From positions 69,688-133,687 of the forward strand of contig JAJXYN010000012.1 in NCBI GenBank assembly GCA_021780535.1: DNA of 64,000 nt, in the 5' to 3' direction. This document shows positions 2,907-53,697 of this stretch, one piece after another (position 1 is the first letter of the stretch; each line of letters opens with the position of its first letter). The position numbers and the translations under genes are program-made. A model generated the notes under the pieces. The model made no database searches and was not told the origin of the DNA. It saw only the letters and a list, made by a program, of their open reading frames with translations. This DNA comes from a bacterium (GTDB lineage Bacteria > Patescibacteriota > Patescibacteriia > JAGPKW01).

Positions 2907-3494
2907 TTATCTAACATAGTCATATTGTTGATAAGATAAAATCTTGTTTTCCAAAACAATCTTTCCACCACTAAAACATCTCACAATCTCTCTTTTCTCA
3001 TCAACACTTCCATTAACCAAAACATGCTTAACATAATCCTTAATATTAATTTCTTTCTTATCCTTATTATCATCCTTATAAATAAGCCTATAAAAGCTAT
3101 TAAACCTATTAATTTCAAGTTTTAATTTATCGCTTATCATTTTCTCATCAATTCTAACCTTATCGACTATTTCTATAAGTTGTTTAATAATCAGATCTTC
3201 TCTCACATAACCATTCTTACAATTTTTATCTTTAGACTTTGTACAACCATAATAAATATAACTTAGAGGCTTTCCATTTTTTAATTTCTTTATTTTTTCT
3301 CTTGCAGATATTCCAGAATTACAAAGTCCACACGTAAATAAATTAGTAAATGCAAATTCTTTATTATTACTTCTGTAATCACATTCACTAGATATTTTCT
3401 CTCTTATTTTTTCAAATACTTCTTTTGTTATTATTGGTTCATGCTGTCCTTTATACCATTTACCATTTCCTTTAGGGATATTCAAAATATCCAT
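2907..3494 (-). CDS. large serine recombinase, C-terminal fragment (recombinase domain + zinc-ribbon), separated from the N-terminal fragment by a frameshift
   Basis: KGNGKWYKGQHEPIITKEVFEKI matches the conserved W..G.HEPII..E.F..VQ block of large serine recombinases. A Cys cluster CGLCNS...YYGC...C forms a zinc ribbon. It overlaps the upstream fragment in a different frame. Confidence 0.7.
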   Translation of the reverse strand: MDILNIPKGNGKWYKGQHEPIITKEVFEKIREKISSECDYRSNNKEFAFTNLFTCGLCNSGISAREKIKKLKNGKPLSYIYYGCTKSKDKNCKNGYVREDLIIKQLIEIVDKVRIDEKMISDKLKLEINRFNSFYRLIYKDDNKDKKEINIKDYVKHVLVNGSVDEKREIVRCFSGGKIVLENKILSYQQYDYVR

Positions 3495-4203
3495 AATAAA
3501 AAGTATTATTAAGCATTAAATAAATATTACTTAATGAAAAATCTTTTCCTGATTTTGTTTTGAAATTTATATCTTTTAACCAATTAAATATCTTTCTTCC
3601 TGAATAATTATCATAAGCAACTTTCTCAAATATTTCTCTTATAATATTCCATCTATCAGGATCTAAATGAATACATCCAGTTCTATCTTTTCTTAAATCA
3701 TTTAGATACCCAGTAGGAGCTACAGCAGGCCATAAACCTTGTTCTACTTTTGCTCTTAAACCTCTTTTTACATTAATACTCTTATTATCATTTTCAAGTT
3801 TTGCTTGTCCTCCTAGAATCATAAGCATAAATTTATCATTAGGAGTATTTTTAAATACTTGATTATATGTTTTTATTTCTATTAATAAGTTTTTATCTAC
3901 TAAGTCTATTAAAGATCCAAGATCTCCAGCGTTTCTAGATAATCTATCAGTATTCCAAGTTAGAAGGGAATTAAACTTCTTATTTTTTAGATCAGAAATA
4001 ATAGAGTTAAAAATATCTCTCTTGCTTGATTCTTTAGCTGAATGACTTTCTTTTTTAATATCAACTATTTCTAATCCTTCTTTTTCTGCTATTTGCATCA
4101 TTTCTTTAATCTGAGAATCAATAGAAAGAGCTTGTCTTTCGTCTTCTTCGCTAGACTTTCTAGCATAAAGACAATATTTCTTTTGAATTATTTGATTATC
4201 CAT
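3472..4203 (-). CDS. large serine recombinase, N-terminal resolvase/invertase catalytic domain fragment
   Basis: YARKSSEEDERQALSIDSQ carries the catalytic Ser in the Y.R.S....Q context, and TDRLSRN is the resolvase DRLSR motif. It ends ...LNNTFYYGYFEYP*; the motif continues KGNGKW in the other frame. Confidence 0.75.
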   Translation of the reverse strand: MDNQIIQKKYCLYARKSSEEDERQALSIDSQIKEMMQIAEKEGLEIVDIKKESHSAKESSKRDIFNSIISDLKNKKFNSLLTWNTDRLSRNAGDLGSLIDLVDKNLLIEIKTYNQVFKNTPNDKFMLMILGGQAKLENDNKSINVKRGLRAKVEQGLWPAVAPTGYLNDLRKDRTGCIHLDPDRWNIIREIFEKVAYDNYSGRKIFNWLKDINFKTKSGKDFSLSNIYLMLNNTFYYGYFEYP

Positions 4204-4217
4204 CTTTTTTATTTTTA

Positions 4218-4310
4218 TTTATCTTTTATTACATTAATGACGTAATAAAAAATTTATATCTAGACTTAAAGAGTAGGTAAACAGTAGATAAAAATGCTTT
4301 TAATTAATCT
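4218..4310. repeat. 92-bp direct repeat, copy A (promoter/operator-like module immediately 5' of the serine recombinase start)
   Basis: About 93% identical to 9418-9509. Contains the imperfect palindrome TTACATTAATGACGTAA with CATTAATG core. On the minus strand a TTTACC-17-TATAAA promoter-like arrangement places the palindrome at or just after the predicted TSS. Confidence 0.65.
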
Positions 4311-6770: not shown

Positions 6771-6853
6771 TATTTACTTAATATTAGCCAATAAATATCA
6801 AAACGACTCAAATACCTAGTGTCGCATATGTCGCATTAAGCCTCTATTTTTTA
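6771..6853. repeat. ~80-bp intergenic repeat family, copy 1 (TATTTACTTA...ATATTAGCCAATAAATA.CAAAA...AGTGTCGCAT...CCTCTATTTTTT)
   Basis: About 85% identical, with indels, to 11077-11160. Confidence 0.6.
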
Positions 6854-7128: not shown

Positions 7129-7824
7129 ATGAGCAAACTAAAAGAATTTAGTAATTTTTTAAAAAATGTTGATTTGGACTCTTACAGAGTTAAATATAGA
7201 CCAATAAAAATAGTTGAAATGGATTTACCATCAGAGATACAAGCATTAAAATTAATATATAAAACTTATTGGGAAAAAAAGGATTTTATGTCTTTTGATG
7301 ACTTTTATAAAAAATATGAAGATGAATTGAACGAAAAATTAGAAAATTTTAGAAAAAAAATACAAATGTGTGAGCAATGTTTTTATCTTGGTTTACCAGC
7401 AAGAATATATAGAACATGGGCTAGTATTATAACTCAAATACATGCTGGTTATATTGCGGAATCTGTTTTTGGAGATGGTTCTGTTGATATGTCGGAAAAA
7501 TTAGATCATGCTGGAATAGATTTTTTAGTAAATTACAATGGATATATACTAAATTATCAAGTAAAGAAAGAAACTGAAAGTAGAGAAGTAAGAAAAGAAA
7601 AAAAACATAAAAATGAAAATAAAGGAGAATCTATAAATATATTTTATAAAGTACCTCAATCAAAAATATTTGAAGACCCAAAGACAAAAAAAGGAGAGTT
7701 TAGAAAACCATACTTAGATTTTATAAATAATAAAAACTTAGAAAGATATAATAATGGTTTTATTGTTTTTACAAAAGAACAATTTGAAAATAAAAAAAAT
7801 GAAATTGATAATAAAATAAATTAA
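7129..7824 (+). CDS. hypothetical protein (231 aa); candidate restriction endonuclease partner of the adjacent methyltransferase
   Basis: Convergent with the MTase gene, with 3' ends overlapping by 4 nt. Possible degenerate PD-(D/E)xK-like stretch GIDFLV...NYQVKK. No confident motif. Confidence 0.5.
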   Translation: MSKLKEFSNFLKNVDLDSYRVKYRPIKIVEMDLPSEIQALKLIYKTYWEKKDFMSFDDFYKKYEDELNEKLENFRKKIQMCEQCFYLGLPARIYRTWASIITQIHAGYIAESVFGDGSVDMSEKLDHAGIDFLVNYNGYILNYQVKKETESREVRKEKKHKNENKGESINIFYKVPQSKIFEDPKTKKGEFRKPYLDFINNKNLERYNNGFIVFTKEQFENKKNEIDNKIN

Positions 7825-9338
7825 ACTGACTTCAAAAATTCTTCTGCTATTTTTATATAATCAGGATTTATTTCAAATCCTATAAAACTACCTCCGAGTT
7901 TTTTTGTAGCAACACATTCAGAACCAGATCCAACAAAAGGAACTAAAACATTAAAATTACCAATTGGTTTGCAAGATTTTATTAACTTTTCAGATAATTC
8001 AAGCGGTTTTTGAGTCGGATGTTTTATAATATTATGGTCAAGATGTTTTTTTAGTAATTTAGGATTAAAACTTTTATTGCATGTTTTACAATAAAAAAAT
8101 CTTTCTTTTATTCCACTACCCCCAGCTAATGTTGATATTTTAATAACATCTCTTGGTAGGGCGCCGTTTTCATTTGCATTATATATAGTTGTTTTCCCTG
8201 TTTTGTTTAATCTTCCAATAGTGCCTGTTCTGGTTTTGCCAGCAGAATTTTTAAGAAAGCCTTCGGTATATGGCTCTCTTACGTCGTCTTTATTAAAAAT
8301 TTTATTATTTTTCCAACAACATATAATGGATTCATGACTTCTTTGCCAAAAATTTAAAGTTGGCATATTTTTATTTGTATAATGCCACACTAACCATCTT
8401 TTGTTTAAATCTATATTAATGAAAATATATGATAAAATTTCACTAAAACCATAAATAAATATTGTTCCTGTATCTTTTAAGACTCTTTTACATTCAGCCA
8501 TATATTTATTTGTCCAAGATATATAATCTTGAATATCCATGTTATCAAAATTGTTTCCAAAATTTTTTCCTATATTATAAGGAGGATCTATAATTACTAT
8601 ATCAAAAAAGTTATCTGGTAAATCTTTTATACCAATTAATAAGTCTTTCAAATATATTGAATTTAGTTTAATTATATTTTTTTTTGTCTTTTTCTTTTTA
8701 TCTTCTTTAATTTTTTTATTTTTTTCATCACTTAAATTTCTTATAATCTTAACAACAATGCCTCGCACTTCAACTTCTTTTCTAAAAAATGGTAACATTT
8801 GTTGATTTGCTGGTTGTAATCTAAATCCGTTTTTTTCTTTATATATTTTTTTTAAGGTAGCTTTATTTTCATCTATTATAGCAACAACGGTTTGTCCGTT
8901 ATCTGCATATGCTTGTTTTTTTATAACAACCACATCTCCATCAAATATTCCATCATCTATCATGCTATCACCACTAACTTTTAAAGAATAATAATCATTA
9001 TAGGAATTTTTTATTTCCTGTTTTGATAATATAATATCTCTTTCTTTATATTCAATTGCTTCTATTGGTAATCCAGCTGTTATAATCCCTATTAACGGTA
9101 TTTTTATTGTATCATTTCTTTTGTTTAAATTAATTAATTTAATAGATCTACTACTGTGGTTGTCTTTTTTGATAAATTTTTTATTAACCAATGATTCTAT
9201 ATGTTCGTGCACAGTTGACACGGAGGATAAATTAAAATTATTTTTTATTTCTTCTATTGTTGGCGATATATTATTTTTTAATATATAATTTTTTATAAAA
9301 TCATAAATTTCTTTTTGTCTTTTAGTTATTGTTTCCAT
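7821..9338 (-). CDS. LexA-like repressor (wHTH + S24 peptidase) fused to a beta-class DNA methyltransferase (N6-adenine/N4-cytosine)
   Basis: N-terminus KRQKEIYDFIKNY...SPTIEEI...STVHEHIESLVNKKFI is a LexA-type winged HTH. ITAGLPIEA matches the LexA Ala-Gly autocleavage site. VSGDSM plus TLKK form the S24 Ser/Lys dyad. The C-terminal half has DPPY motif IV (DIVIIDPPYNIG) before FxGxG motif I (VPFVGSGSE). Confidence 0.85.
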   Translation of the reverse strand: METITKRQKEIYDFIKNYILKNNISPTIEEIKNNFNLSSVSTVHEHIESLVNKKFIKKDNHSSRSIKLINLNKRNDTIKIPLIGIITAGLPIEAIEYKERDIILSKQEIKNSYNDYYSLKVSGDSMIDDGIFDGDVVVIKKQAYADNGQTVVAIIDENKATLKKIYKEKNGFRLQPANQQMLPFFRKEVEVRGIVVKIIRNLSDEKNKKIKEDKKKKTKKNIIKLNSIYLKDLLIGIKDLPDNFFDIVIIDPPYNIGKNFGNNFDNMDIQDYISWTNKYMAECKRVLKDTGTIFIYGFSEILSYIFINIDLNKRWLVWHYTNKNMPTLNFWQRSHESIICCWKNNKIFNKDDVREPYTEGFLKNSAGKTRTGTIGRLNKTGKTTIYNANENGALPRDVIKISTLAGGSGIKERFFYCKTCNKSFNPKLLKKHLDHNIIKHPTQKPLELSEKLIKSCKPIGNFNVLVPFVGSGSECVATKKLGGSFIGFEINPDYIKIAEEFLKSV

Positions 9339-9417
9339 GTATTTTTATTTATAATAATAATTATATTATACCGAAAATTTTCCGAAAATGTAAATATACT
9401 TTTCCACACGAGATAGT
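9339..9417 (-). promoter_or_regulatory. putative promoter of the LexA-MTase gene, with a near-palindrome in the spacer
   Basis: Minus strand reads TTTACA-18-TATAAT, and the spacer contains the 10-bp perfect palindrome GAAAATTTTC within CCGAAAATTTTCCG. CCGAAAAT is directly repeated. Confidence 0.35.
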
Positions 9418-9509
9418 TTATCTTTTATTACATTAATGACGCAATAAAAAAATTATATCTAGGCTTAAAGAGTAGATAAACAGTAGATAAAAATGCTTTT
9501 AATTAGATA
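9418..9509. repeat. 92-bp direct repeat, copy B (upstream of the LexA-MTase gene)
   Basis: About 93% identical to 4218-4310. Confidence 0.65.
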
Positions 9510-11076: not shown

Positions 11077-11160
11077 ATTTACTTATATTTTATTTAATAT
11101 TAGCCAATAAATACCAAAATAAATCAAATACTTAGTGTCGCATTAAACCTCTATTTTTTG
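11077..11160. repeat. ~80-bp intergenic repeat family, copy 2
   Basis: About 85% identical to 6771-6853. Confidence 0.6.
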
Positions 11161-33858: not shown

Positions 33859-35982
33859 ATGTTAAAAGTTCAAATAGAAAAAAATAAAATATTTTCTCCT
33901 CTTAGAAAAAAATGGTTAATAAATACTCCAGAAGAAGAAGTCAGACAAGGTTATATTTGTAAGCTTGTTAATGATTATGGGTATGATTTAGAACAAATAG
34001 ATGAAGAGTTGCAGGTAAATAATAGTTTAAGAGGACAAGGTAAATCAAGAGCAGATATTGTCATTTGGAAATCAAAAGAAGAAAGGTTGAGCAAAAAAAA
34101 TGCTTTTATTGTTGTTGAATGTAAATCTGATAATGTTGTTATACATCCAGAAGATTATTATCAAGGTAATAACTATGCTTCTTGGGCAAGGGCTAAATTT
34201 TTTATTACTCACAATAATGCTGAAACAAAGTATTTTCAGATGCTTGAAGATAAATTACCTATTGATTTAAATGAAATAGCTAATATACCCAAAGCGGAAG
34301 AAGTAAATAATGAGATTAGATTGAAAGAGTTAGTTGATGAAACTAAAGTATTTACTAGAGATGAATTTTCAAAGTTACTTTATAAATGTCATACAATAAT
34401 TAGAAATAATGACAAACTTTCTCCTGAAGGTGCTTTTGATGAAATTAGTAAAATATTATTTATTAAGATAAGATATGAAAGACAAAAAGGGAAAAATATA
34501 TTTTCTCTTGCTCGTTTTAATGAATTAAAAAATAATTATGAAGAAACTGCTTCTAGAAACTCTAAGCCGTTTTATCAAAATTTATTTGAAAAAACAAAAG
34601 ATGATTTAGAGAAAGATGAACTTTTTGAAACGAATGAAGAGATAAAAATTCGTGAAAATAGCTTTGAACAAATAGTAAAAGAACTGGAGAAATATAATCT
34701 TTCAGATACAGGAGATGATGTTAAAGGAATAGCTTTTGAGCAATTTTTAGGCAAAACATTTAGAGGTGAGCTTGGGCAATTTTTTACTCCTAGAACAATA
34801 GTTGATTTCATGGTTGATATTTTAGACCCAAAAGAAAATGATTTAATTTGTGATCCTTGTTGTGGATCTGGTGGTTTTCTTATTAAAGCTTTTGACTATA
34901 TTAGAGCTAAAATTGAAGCTGATATTTTGAGACAAAAAGAAGAAATCAAAAATAAATATTTTGATGAAAAGTATCAAAAATTAGATGATAAAGAAAAGCA
35001 AAAGATTGATGATACTGTAGAACGTGAATTTAAGAAATTGAATCAAGAACTAGATAATAAAATAGAAAAATCTAGATTACATAATTTATCTCATAATTGT
35101 ATATATGGTTCTGACGCTAATCCAAGAATGGCAAGAACTAGTAAAATGAATATGATTATGCATGGTGATGGTCATGGTGGAGTTCATCATAATGATGGAT
35201 TATTGGATGTTAATGGTATCTTTGAAAACCGTTTTGATATAATTCTTACAAACCCTCCTTTTGGTTCAAGAGTTGGCAAAGATCACAAAATAACAGATAA
35301 TGATAATAAATATAAAGGCAAAGAATCTTATATTAAAGAAAAATTTGGTGATGCAGGTTTAAATGCAATATCTAATTTAGAGAATAACATTGGTAAAAAT
35401 CTTATAGAAACTTATGAAACTGGAAGTTTTTCAACTCTTACAGAAGTTTTGTTTATGGAACGTTATCTAAGATTGCTTAAGCAAGGTGGGAAAATGGCCG
35501 TTGTTTTGCCAGAGGGTTTTTTAAATAATCCAAATTTACAAAAAGTAAGAGAATATTTTGAAGGTAGAGCTAAGATTGAGCTTATCGTTTCTATCCCTCA
35601 GGATGTATTTATAGCTAGCGGGGCTACGGTAAAGCCCAGTTTGGTGTTTTTACAAAAATTTACTCAAGTAGATAGTAAAAAATATGAAAAAATAAAAGAG
35701 GAAGTAAATAAAAATATTATAGAAAAATATCAAATTCAAATAGATGAATTAGAAAATGAATTAGAAAAACTAAAAGGAGATAAAAGAAAACTAAAGAAAA
35801 AAGAATTGGATAATTTAGAAATTCTTATTGAAACTGAGATAAAACAGGAGATTAAAAATAAATTTGATTATCAAATACCAATAGTAGAAGTTGAAAAAGC
35901 TGGCATTACAACAACAGGAGAAAAATGTGAAAATGAACTTTTAGATGTAGTAAAAGAGTATAGAAAATATAAATCTAAATAA
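33859..35982 (+). CDS. restriction-modification enzyme subunit: N-terminal HsdR_N-like PD-(D/E)xK nuclease domain fused to a gamma-class N6-adenine methyltransferase (BcgI A-subunit-like type IIB; alternatively an unusual type I HsdM)
   Basis: N-terminus RGQGKSRADIVIW...IVVECKSDN gives a D...ExK motif. MTase motif I DPCCGSGGFL and motif IV ILTNPPFGS. The adjacent HsdS-like gene and the absence of a helicase-type HsdR in the window fit a BcgI-like A/B system. Confidence 0.7.
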   Translation: MLKVQIEKNKIFSPLRKKWLINTPEEEVRQGYICKLVNDYGYDLEQIDEELQVNNSLRGQGKSRADIVIWKSKEERLSKKNAFIVVECKSDNVVIHPEDYYQGNNYASWARAKFFITHNNAETKYFQMLEDKLPIDLNEIANIPKAEEVNNEIRLKELVDETKVFTRDEFSKLLYKCHTIIRNNDKLSPEGAFDEISKILFIKIRYERQKGKNIFSLARFNELKNNYEETASRNSKPFYQNLFEKTKDDLEKDELFETNEEIKIRENSFEQIVKELEKYNLSDTGDDVKGIAFEQFLGKTFRGELGQFFTPRTIVDFMVDILDPKENDLICDPCCGSGGFLIKAFDYIRAKIEADILRQKEEIKNKYFDEKYQKLDDKEKQKIDDTVEREFKKLNQELDNKIEKSRLHNLSHNCIYGSDANPRMARTSKMNMIMHGDGHGGVHHNDGLLDVNGIFENRFDIILTNPPFGSRVGKDHKITDNDNKYKGKESYIKEKFGDAGLNAISNLENNIGKNLIETYETGSFSTLTEVLFMERYLRLLKQGGKMAVVLPEGFLNNPNLQKVREYFEGRAKIELIVSIPQDVFIASGATVKPSLVFLQKFTQVDSKKYEKIKEEVNKNIIEKYQIQIDELENELEKLKGDKRKLKKKELDNLEILIETEIKQEIKNKFDYQIPIVEVEKAGITTTGEKCENELLDVVKEYRKYKSK

Positions 35983-53622: not shown

Positions 53623-53697
53623 GGCCTCATCGTCTAGTGGTTAGGACATATCCTTCTCAAGGATGGAACCGGAGTTCGATTCTCCGTGGGGCTACCA
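53623..53697 (+). tRNA. tRNA-Glu (anticodon CTC), encoded 3' CCA
   Basis: Cloverleaf folds by hand. Acceptor GGCCTCA/TGGGGCT (two G-U pairs). D-arm GTCT-AGTGGTTA-GGAC. Anticodon stem TATCC/GGATG with loop TTCTCAA. T-arm CGGAG-TTCGATT-CTCCG. The 5' half TCGTCTAGTGGTTAGGAC resembles bacterial tRNA-Glu. Confidence 0.8.

Follow-up and report, generated by a model that had tools for sequence, protein, structure and literature searches.

A LexA-methyltransferase fusion paired with a TaqI-family nuclease in Patescibacteria suggests self-repressed and possibly damage-responsive control of restriction-modification

In a stretch of 64,000 nucleotides from a patescibacterial genome (NCBI GenBank assembly GCA_021780535.1, contig JAJXYN010000012.1, positions 69,688 to 133,687; hereafter, the window), a gene on the minus strand (7821-9338) encodes a LexA repressor joined to a DNA methyltransferase (MTase), and a convergent gene on the plus strand (7129-7824) encodes a putative restriction endonuclease. 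The two genes are considered here as a restriction-modification (R-M) system in which the modification (M) gene would be regulated by its own product. R-M systems kill their host unless the balance between methylase and nuclease is kept, and the known controls of these systems comprise C proteins, small helix-turn-helix (HTH) domains fused to C5-methylases, antisense RNAs and the proteolytic restriction alleviation of Type I systems. Patescibacteria, for their part, have tiny genomes and few regulators.

The fusion gene is a single open reading frame (ORF) of 505 amino acids (aa) that runs from ATG to TAA with zero internal stops, as claimed in an original prediction made on this DNA, and its LexA, S24 and MTase domains each score above the curated cut-off of their profile models (three Pfam domains plus TIGR00498). 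The N-terminal winged-HTH DNA-binding domain (aa 1-64, 9147-9338; PF01726 LexA_DNA_bind, 1.6e-15) contains the recognition helix SSVSTVHEHIESL (aa 38-50, nt 9189-9227) and is followed by an S24 peptidase/dimerization domain (aa 81-196, 8751-9098; PF00717 Peptidase_S24, 6.5e-25), the translation of which presents a predicted Ala88-Gly89 cleavage site (nt 9072-9077) and the Ser/Lys dyad in the form of Ser125 (GDSM, nt 8964-8966) and Lys163 (TLKK, nt 8850-8852). The LexA moiety is hence complete, as anticipated, with the correction that the scissile bond lies at IITA/GLPIEA rather than at ITAG/LPIEA. Furthermore, residues 1-202 match the NCBIfam equivalog TIGR00498 (lexA), scoring 174 bits where the cut-off is 111, and the best PDB match of the LexA part is Thermotoga maritima LexA (3k2z, 9e-31), in a full-length alignment covering aa 4-202.

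The C-terminal part of the protein is an N6_N4 DNA methyltransferase domain (aa 246-500, 7839-8603; PF01555, 7.5e-36; PADLOC MTase_II, 3.4e-43), whose relatives in the PDB are M.RsrI, M.MboIIA and CcrM-type enzymes. Its assignment to the beta class stands because DPPY (aa 251-254, nt 8577-8588) precedes the FxGxG motif (FVGSGS, aa 468-473, nt 7920-7937). The LexA and MTase parts are connected by a Lys/Glu-rich flexible linker (aa 203-225, 8664-8732) that is poorly conserved and variable in length among fusion homologues. In the AlphaFold2 model (mean pLDDT 69.9), three parts are folded, with values of 78-90 for the LexA winged-HTH domain, and the Lys-rich linker that joins them at residues 204-223 is disordered (pLDDT below 50). 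All of these features lie on the minus strand. Across 78 of 78 aligned fusions, A88, G89, S125, K163, DPPY, FxGxG and a C417-x2-C420...H432-x2-H435...H440 motif are invariant. The last of these (nt 8019-8090), a candidate zinc-binding insert located in the target-recognition region of the MTase, is also kept in the motif region of standalone viral MTases related to this domain; the confidence of the AlphaFold2 model is moderate there.

The fusion is genuine. A stop or frameshift hidden at the junction was ruled out by the continuous reading frame and by the presence of the same junction in hundreds of homologues. An artefact of assembly or annotation, in which a lexA gene and an orphan MTase gene had been joined by sequencing error, can practically be dismissed on the same grounds, given that hundreds of full-length homologues share the junction and that an identical protein occurs on independent NCBI (GCA_027355865.1), Logan and ENA assemblies. 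The best 120 matches in a database of 5.8 billion proteins are all of about 505 aa with three domains each (52-59% identity), and a scan using one genome per species yielded relatives in at least 294 genomes, the best 80 loci of which (L001-L080) were analyzed and all encode full-length fusions. The three-domain architecture is uninterrupted throughout both sets, at 50-59% identity. The fusion is present in many lineages of the Patescibacteria, among them Falkow-, Jorgensen-, Nomura-, Yonath-, Magasanik-, Dojka-, Kaiser- and Taylorbacteria. What had been presented as a lone oddity is therefore a member of a large family, in which, as detailed below, LexA is joined to all MTase classes. The NCBI annotation of these homologues reads "transcriptional repressor LexA", and taking them for plain LexA proteins would mislead reconstructions of SOS regulons in Patescibacteria.

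The 231-aa product of the convergent gene at 7129-7824, which had been overlooked as a nuclease, matches the Pfam RE_TaqI family (3.8e-36, 222 of 229 profile positions) and PADLOC REase_II (5.4e-32), identifying it as a TaqI-family Type II restriction endonuclease. The stop codons of the two genes overlap by 4 nt in the window and mostly by 9 nt in homologous loci. About 70 of the 80 loci have a homologue of the nuclease (53-67% identity) convergent to and downstream of the fusion gene, a strongly positive answer to the co-occurrence check proposed for this neighbor, and in the 61 full-length copies D126, D131 and N142-Y-Q-V-K146-K147 are invariant, forming a PD-(D/E)xK-like core; comparison of the nuclease sequence with the PDB returned zero matches. 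Taken together, these data show that the predicted LexA-MTase and nuclease genes form a conserved convergent pair across the Patescibacteria. Since its neighbor is a TaqI-family nuclease, the fusion is to be read as the modification enzyme of a Type II R-M system, a membership that we hold with high confidence, and not as an orphan methylase that came under SOS control. An orphan CcrM-like cell-cycle methylase was likewise ruled out by the conserved adjoining cognate nuclease.

Indirect evidence for this assignment comes from the frequency of TCGA, the TaqI site, which in the 80 pooled loci is the most avoided among all sixteen palindromes of 4 bp (917 observed versus 2137 expected, observed/expected ratio 0.43, a value that stands without matched control genomes) and is also underrepresented in the window (28 versus 52, ratio 0.54, likewise without control genomes). 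The probable target of the predicted R-M system is TCGA, with N6-adenine methylation. The TaqI system itself (R.TaqI/M.TaqI, TCGA) shares with the one described here a nuclease of the RE_TaqI family and the avoidance of TCGA in host DNA, but M.TaqI is a gamma-class enzyme (N6_Mtase/Eco57I plus TaqI_C) devoid of regulator, whereas the window encodes a beta-class N6_N4 enzyme fused to LexA.

In about 28 of 61 assessable loci, a gene for a 72-aa XRE-type HTH protein of the C-protein type overlaps the start of the nuclease gene, an arrangement shared with C-protein R-M systems such as PvuII, BamHI and AhdI. Unlike these systems, the window copy has no C gene, and its LexA module is predicted to control M and not the restriction (R) gene. 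The region 5' of the nuclease gene in the window holds a terminator-like hairpin and non-coding DNA, and no RNA gene was found there with Rfam, the sole Rfam match in the window being a tRNA at 53623-53694. In seven other loci (L002, L006, L022, L029, L041, L056 and L063), tRNA-like sequences with GGTTCGAATCC T-arms lie directly 5' of the nuclease gene, which fits an insertion of the R-M module beside tRNA genes.

Standalone relatives of the MTase domain (46-59% identity) were found on IMG/VR contigs L092-L171, including GVMAG giant-virus bins and phage contigs of 300-400 kb. A phage-borne LexA-MTase was ruled out, as the 80 viral loci carry the MTase domain only, with neither LexA nor nuclease; these viral enzymes are presumably anti-restriction self-methylases directed against TCGA-type systems.

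Read in the sense orientation, the putative promoter of the fusion gene extends from 9408 down to 9365 on the minus strand as TGTGGAAAA-N5-TTTACA-TTTTCGGAAAATTTTCGG-TATAAT. It comprises a -35 hexamer TTTACA (9389-9394) and a -10 hexamer TATAAT (9365-9370), both assigned by sequence reading; the corresponding elements in homologues are TTGAC(T/A)-like and, directly after the second LexA box, TATAAT or TATACT. The 18-nt spacer between the hexamers is filled by two tandem LexA boxes with an 11-bp period, TTTTCGG-AAAA-TTTTCGG (9371-9388), which constitute the predicted operator. The palindrome GAAAATTTTC previously described in this promoter is present at 9373-9382 but does not hold as an operator, being merely the junction of the direct repeat TTTTCGG-N4-TTTTCGG; as a conserved feature it was ruled out, given that homologues keep the direct repeat at its 11-bp period and not the dyad symmetry.

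An exact 7-mer repeat at this period is found in 60 of 79 homologous promoters, compared to 0.6 in shuffled sequences, with no enrichment of other periods, and it always lies between the -35 and -10 elements. The repeated unit differs by lineage (TTTCTAT, TTTCGGT, GCTCGGG or TTTTAGG), with both copies changing together. Furthermore, the residue aligned to E44 of the window protein (in the helix STVHEHIESL) covaries with the box, Phe or Tyr going with TTCTA (49:0) and Glu or Gln with TCGG (0:18), an association with a Fisher probability of 1e-16 that is not corrected for phylogeny. The resulting helix/box pairs (STVHEH with TTCGG, STAHFH with TTCTA and PSTTHEH with CTCGGG) could serve the engineering of LexA as a natural specificity code.

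The same promoter design, TTGCGC-TTTCGGT-N4-TTTCGGT-TATAAT, precedes standalone patescibacterial lexA genes, which encode proteins of 203-205 aa with an STVHEH helix in a housekeeping lexA-udg context, indicating that the tandem repeat is the patescibacterial LexA box. Direct-repeat LexA boxes have been described in the Alphaproteobacteria, where the GTTC-N7-GTTC motif has the identical 11-bp period (PMC4951493), and the Patescibacteria have been listed among the lineages with a LexA that recognizes direct repeats (PMC7739468). The alphaproteobacterial motif is the relevant precedent; the LexA of the Verrucomicrobia was rejected as such because its motif is palindromic. A site resembling the Cheo box, GAAC-N4-GTTC, is not present.

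The tandem box is single-copy in the 64-kb window and, in 59 loci, restricted to the M promoter, with none 5' of R or C; no convincing additional LexA boxes were detected before R, C or neighboring genes in the window or in these loci. This distribution bears on the notion that the fusion might be the master SOS repressor, that is, the sole LexA of the cell in charge of a genome-wide regulon, its methylase being a passenger or targeted to SOS boxes. The STVHEH/TTTCGG pair of the window is indeed that of the standalone patescibacterial lexA, a second LexA is not found in the 64-kb window, and the NCBI label of the homologues agrees with such a role. Nonetheless, we deem it quite improbable, not only on account of the confinement of the box to a single promoter, but also because the gene is tightly linked to the nuclease gene, and sometimes to tRNA genes or recombinases, in the manner of a mobile module, because most fusions use the diverged TTCTA box, unlike the standalone type, and because standalone LexAs are common in the phylum. 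Moreover, two different LexA-MTase systems are neighbors in one locus (L051), with the pairs STAHHH/TTTTCTA and STVHEH/TTTTCGG.

Upstream of the -35 hexamer, the window promoter carries a 9-mer resembling a DnaA box, TGTGGAAAA (9400-9408, minus strand), with one mismatch to TGTGGATAA, the complement of TTATCCACA. In 59 of 79 loci, a perfect TGTGGATAA is located no more than 200 nt 5' of the fusion gene; the 795 kb of locus DNA contain 79 perfect boxes in total, of which these make up 59. The element is mostly located 8-16 nt 5' of the tandem boxes, sometimes within the 5' untranslated region, and is absent from standalone lexA promoters, which suggests an additional DnaA-dependent or replication-linked input. 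A second motif, GTCAA (often AAGTCAA), occupies the Shine-Dalgarno position 9-11 nt 5' of the fusion ATG in 41 of 79 loci versus 2.0 expected, yet it is not a Shine-Dalgarno sequence; it also occurs at gamma-class (L088) and C5 (L089) fusions and not in the window.

The location of the boxes, filling the spacer of the gene's own promoter, implies that the methylase represses its own synthesis, and autorepression of the fusion gene by the encoded protein is in our view highly likely. As strongly indicated by the operator layout, the LexA moiety, dimerized through its S24 domain, would bind both tandem boxes, so that only the M promoter would be under LexA control and the nuclease promoter, lacking boxes, would not. 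As predicted from its sequence, then, the fusion protein would serve both as the modification enzyme of the R-M system and as the repressor of its own gene.

Self-repression by an MTase has a precedent in M.MspI and M.ScrFIA, which also carry a fused N-terminal repressor. In the SsoII-type enzymes (M.SsoII, M.Ecl18kI and M.EcoRII), an N-terminal DNA-binding domain separated by a flexible linker autorepresses the enzyme's own promoter (PMC3978073, PMC2760811, PMC12707154), as predicted here. The SsoII-type regulators, however, are simple HTH domains of about 70 aa on C5-MTases that lack a protease domain and recognize an inverted-repeat operator situated between divergent R and M genes. Here, a full LexA of about 200 aa with its S24 autoprotease is found on four MTase classes together with a tandem direct-repeat operator, and R and M are convergent, so that only M would be controlled and R has no box. 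In comparison with SOS LexA proteins (TIGR00498; 3k2z, 1jhh, 3jso), the winged HTH, the Ala-Gly site, the Ser/Lys dyad and the overlap of the operator with the protein's own promoter are shared, whereas the 300-aa C-terminal DNA MTase, the R-M setting and the apparent lack of nearby targets beyond its own promoter are particular to the fusion.

Fusion of repressor and enzyme would tie the concentration of repressor to that of free methylase, as in M.SsoII, M.Ecl18kI and M.EcoRII, allowing M to be expressed early and strongly when the cell is naive and to settle at a low, steady level afterwards. The module might then act solely as a dimerizing autorepressor and sensor of free enzyme, in the manner of SsoII and EcoRII, and RecA-stimulated cleavage would have no physiological role. 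Fused HTH domains that cannot be cleaved do suffice in M.SsoII, M.Ecl18kI and M.EcoRII (PMC12707154, PMC2760811), and neither the operator position nor local autoregulation needs cleavage. Yet A88, G89, S125 and K163 remain unchanged in all 78 fusions despite an overall identity of only 50-59%, and are kept in fusions to other MTase classes. Such constancy of both cleavage site and dyad would not be required for dimerization alone, and we therefore regard a purely repressive role as unlikely.

The strict conservation of the cleavage site and dyad, beyond the needs of dimerization, is what leads us to infer RecA-triggered cleavage, and we rate RecA-dependent derepression of M as an even chance. 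DNA damage, to which the system's own nuclease could contribute by cutting unmethylated sites, would give rise to RecA filaments on single-stranded DNA, and these would stimulate self-cleavage; this would detach the DNA-binding domain, derepress the promoter and raise the supply of methylase. Unbalanced R-M activity is known to induce the SOS response (PMC3874152), and the circuit would consequently feed back negatively on self-restriction and autoimmunity. Damage-induced restriction alleviation has been described for Type I systems, where it acts through ClpXP degradation of HsdR (PMC12707154). A Type II equivalent of this process would share with it the proposed shift of the R/M balance towards protection upon damage, but differ in that the Type I mechanism is proteolysis of the restriction subunit and the one proposed here is transcriptional derepression through self-cleavage of a repressor. 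The DnaA-box-like element may add a replication-linked input to the circuit. Taken as a whole, the interpretation that we favor, with moderate confidence, is that the methylase gene is autorepressed and becomes derepressed when RecA stimulates self-cleavage of its product. This would constitute a damage-responsive circuit for restriction alleviation and homeostasis, the design of which probably couples methylase supply to DNA damage.

The fragments of E. coli LexA become protease substrates after cleavage. By analogy, cleavage of the fusion might mark the S24-MTase product for degradation, bringing the methylase below the nuclease and killing the damaged cell by self-restriction, in a suicide response akin to abortive infection. 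That R-M systems act as toxin-antitoxin pairs, whose imbalance leads to SOS induction and cell death (PMC3874152), would fit such an outcome. However, cleavage would at the same time derepress the M promoter, and existing methylation lasts until it is diluted by replication, making suicide a very unlikely function.

Several considerations weigh against the damage-responsive circuit. DNA binding, repression, cleavage and methylation specificity are all predictions; the statistic for helix/box covariation ignores phylogeny, and TCGA avoidance stands without matched genomes free of the system. RecA is not found in the 64-kb window and is taken to be encoded elsewhere in the genome, an assumption based on general knowledge of Patescibacteria. 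The S24-MTase fragment released by cleavage could stay active or be degraded. The model leaves the DnaA-box-like element, and the GTCAA motif of other loci, unaccounted for. Finally, because the box of the window is of the standalone lexA type, cross-talk with the chromosomal SOS regulon is possible.

The LexA module is also found beyond the beta-class enzymes. Among 1.84 billion cluster representatives, those most similar to the LexA part, queried on its own, share 43-62% identity with it and are mostly proteins of 295-890 aa with an N-terminal LexA module, and Pfam searches on 20 of these relatives identified as partners C5 MTases (PF00145), several N6_N4 subtypes, gamma-class enzymes (N6_Mtase/Eco57I/TaqI_C) and D12/Dam-like enzymes. 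Loci with a gamma-class (L088), a C5 (L089) and a Dam-like (L090) fusion all present the arrangement of TGTGGATAA, -35 element, tandem boxes and -10 element; in L090, the fusion gene is the first of an operon that also encodes an AlwI-type nuclease, another MTase and a DpnI-like nuclease. It is conceivable, though rather less certain than the circuit itself, that a portable cassette made up of a DnaA-box-like site, a tandem-LexA-box promoter and a cleavable LexA module has been repeatedly captured by unrelated R-M methylases of the C5, alpha, beta and gamma classes in Patescibacteria. Such a cassette would provide general damage-responsive, and possibly replication-responsive, control of R-M, with the diversification of helix and box insulating co-resident systems from each other and from the SOS regulon. 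If true, it would represent an unrecognized general form of R-M regulation, endowing Type II systems with built-in restriction alleviation and protection from autoimmunity.

An unfused LexA of the same clade (199 aa) was observed in locus L086 (ENA ERZ27257414 k141_1057256), divergent from an operon of an NgoPII-type nuclease and a C5-MTase. Its promoter carries CTTCGGC-N4-ATTCGGG boxes and a near-DnaA box, and the locus may represent the same type of control without the fusion.

The use of a complete LexA with its S24 module across MTase classes is a new form of the MTase-fused autorepressors of the SsoII type. A methylase fused to LexA or S24 goes unmentioned in two comprehensive reviews of R-M regulation (PMC12707154, from 2025, in which the terms "LexA" and "S24" are absent, and PMC3874152), and no LexA-MTase fusion was found in full-text searches on LexA, MTases, R-M and Patescibacteria or the Candidate Phyla Radiation, a 2017 study of the SOS response in Patescibacteria lying outside their scope. 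Within this literature, the earlier remark that no characterized fusion of this kind was known is upheld. If the proposed circuit is correct, a self-cleaving SOS repressor placed on a methylase would link damage sensing directly to the control of Type II R-M systems, and LexA would have been recruited, beyond the SOS regulon, as a regulator that is both modular and mobile, in a circuit that is simple and abundant in Patescibacteria.

The R-M pair of the window lies within a 5.2-kb segment flanked by two copies of an 89-nt direct repeat that are 96% identical, one directly 5' of a serine recombinase gene (4218-4306) and the other starting directly beyond the fusion promoter (9417-9505). A module shared by the recombinase and the fusion had been recognized before and does exist, although its length is 89 nt and not the 92 bp then given. 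The segment also contains a 501-aa ORF and an ORF with an HD domain; neither these nor two ORFs of 117 and 230 aa co-travel with the R-M pair in other loci, and all four lacked PADLOC matches. The recombinase gene (3472-4203, minus strand; Resolvase/Recombinase in Pfam) is followed by a Zn_ribbon_recom ORF, a large enzyme thus being called as two ORFs (243 and 195 aa) and possibly frameshifted. Serine recombinases also occur near the R-M pair in L001, L031, L072 and L078, and the repeats and the recombinase may mark a mobile cassette. In a short region of the window (34831-34965), 47 aa weakly resemble the beginning of the S24 region of the LexA part (tblastn, E 0.001); this segment is probably unrelated or belongs to an S26-type peptidase. 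Lastly, a second intergenic direct repeat of 55 nt, with 89% identity between copies (6773-6827 and 11089-11143, 4.3 kb apart), straddles the R-M region.

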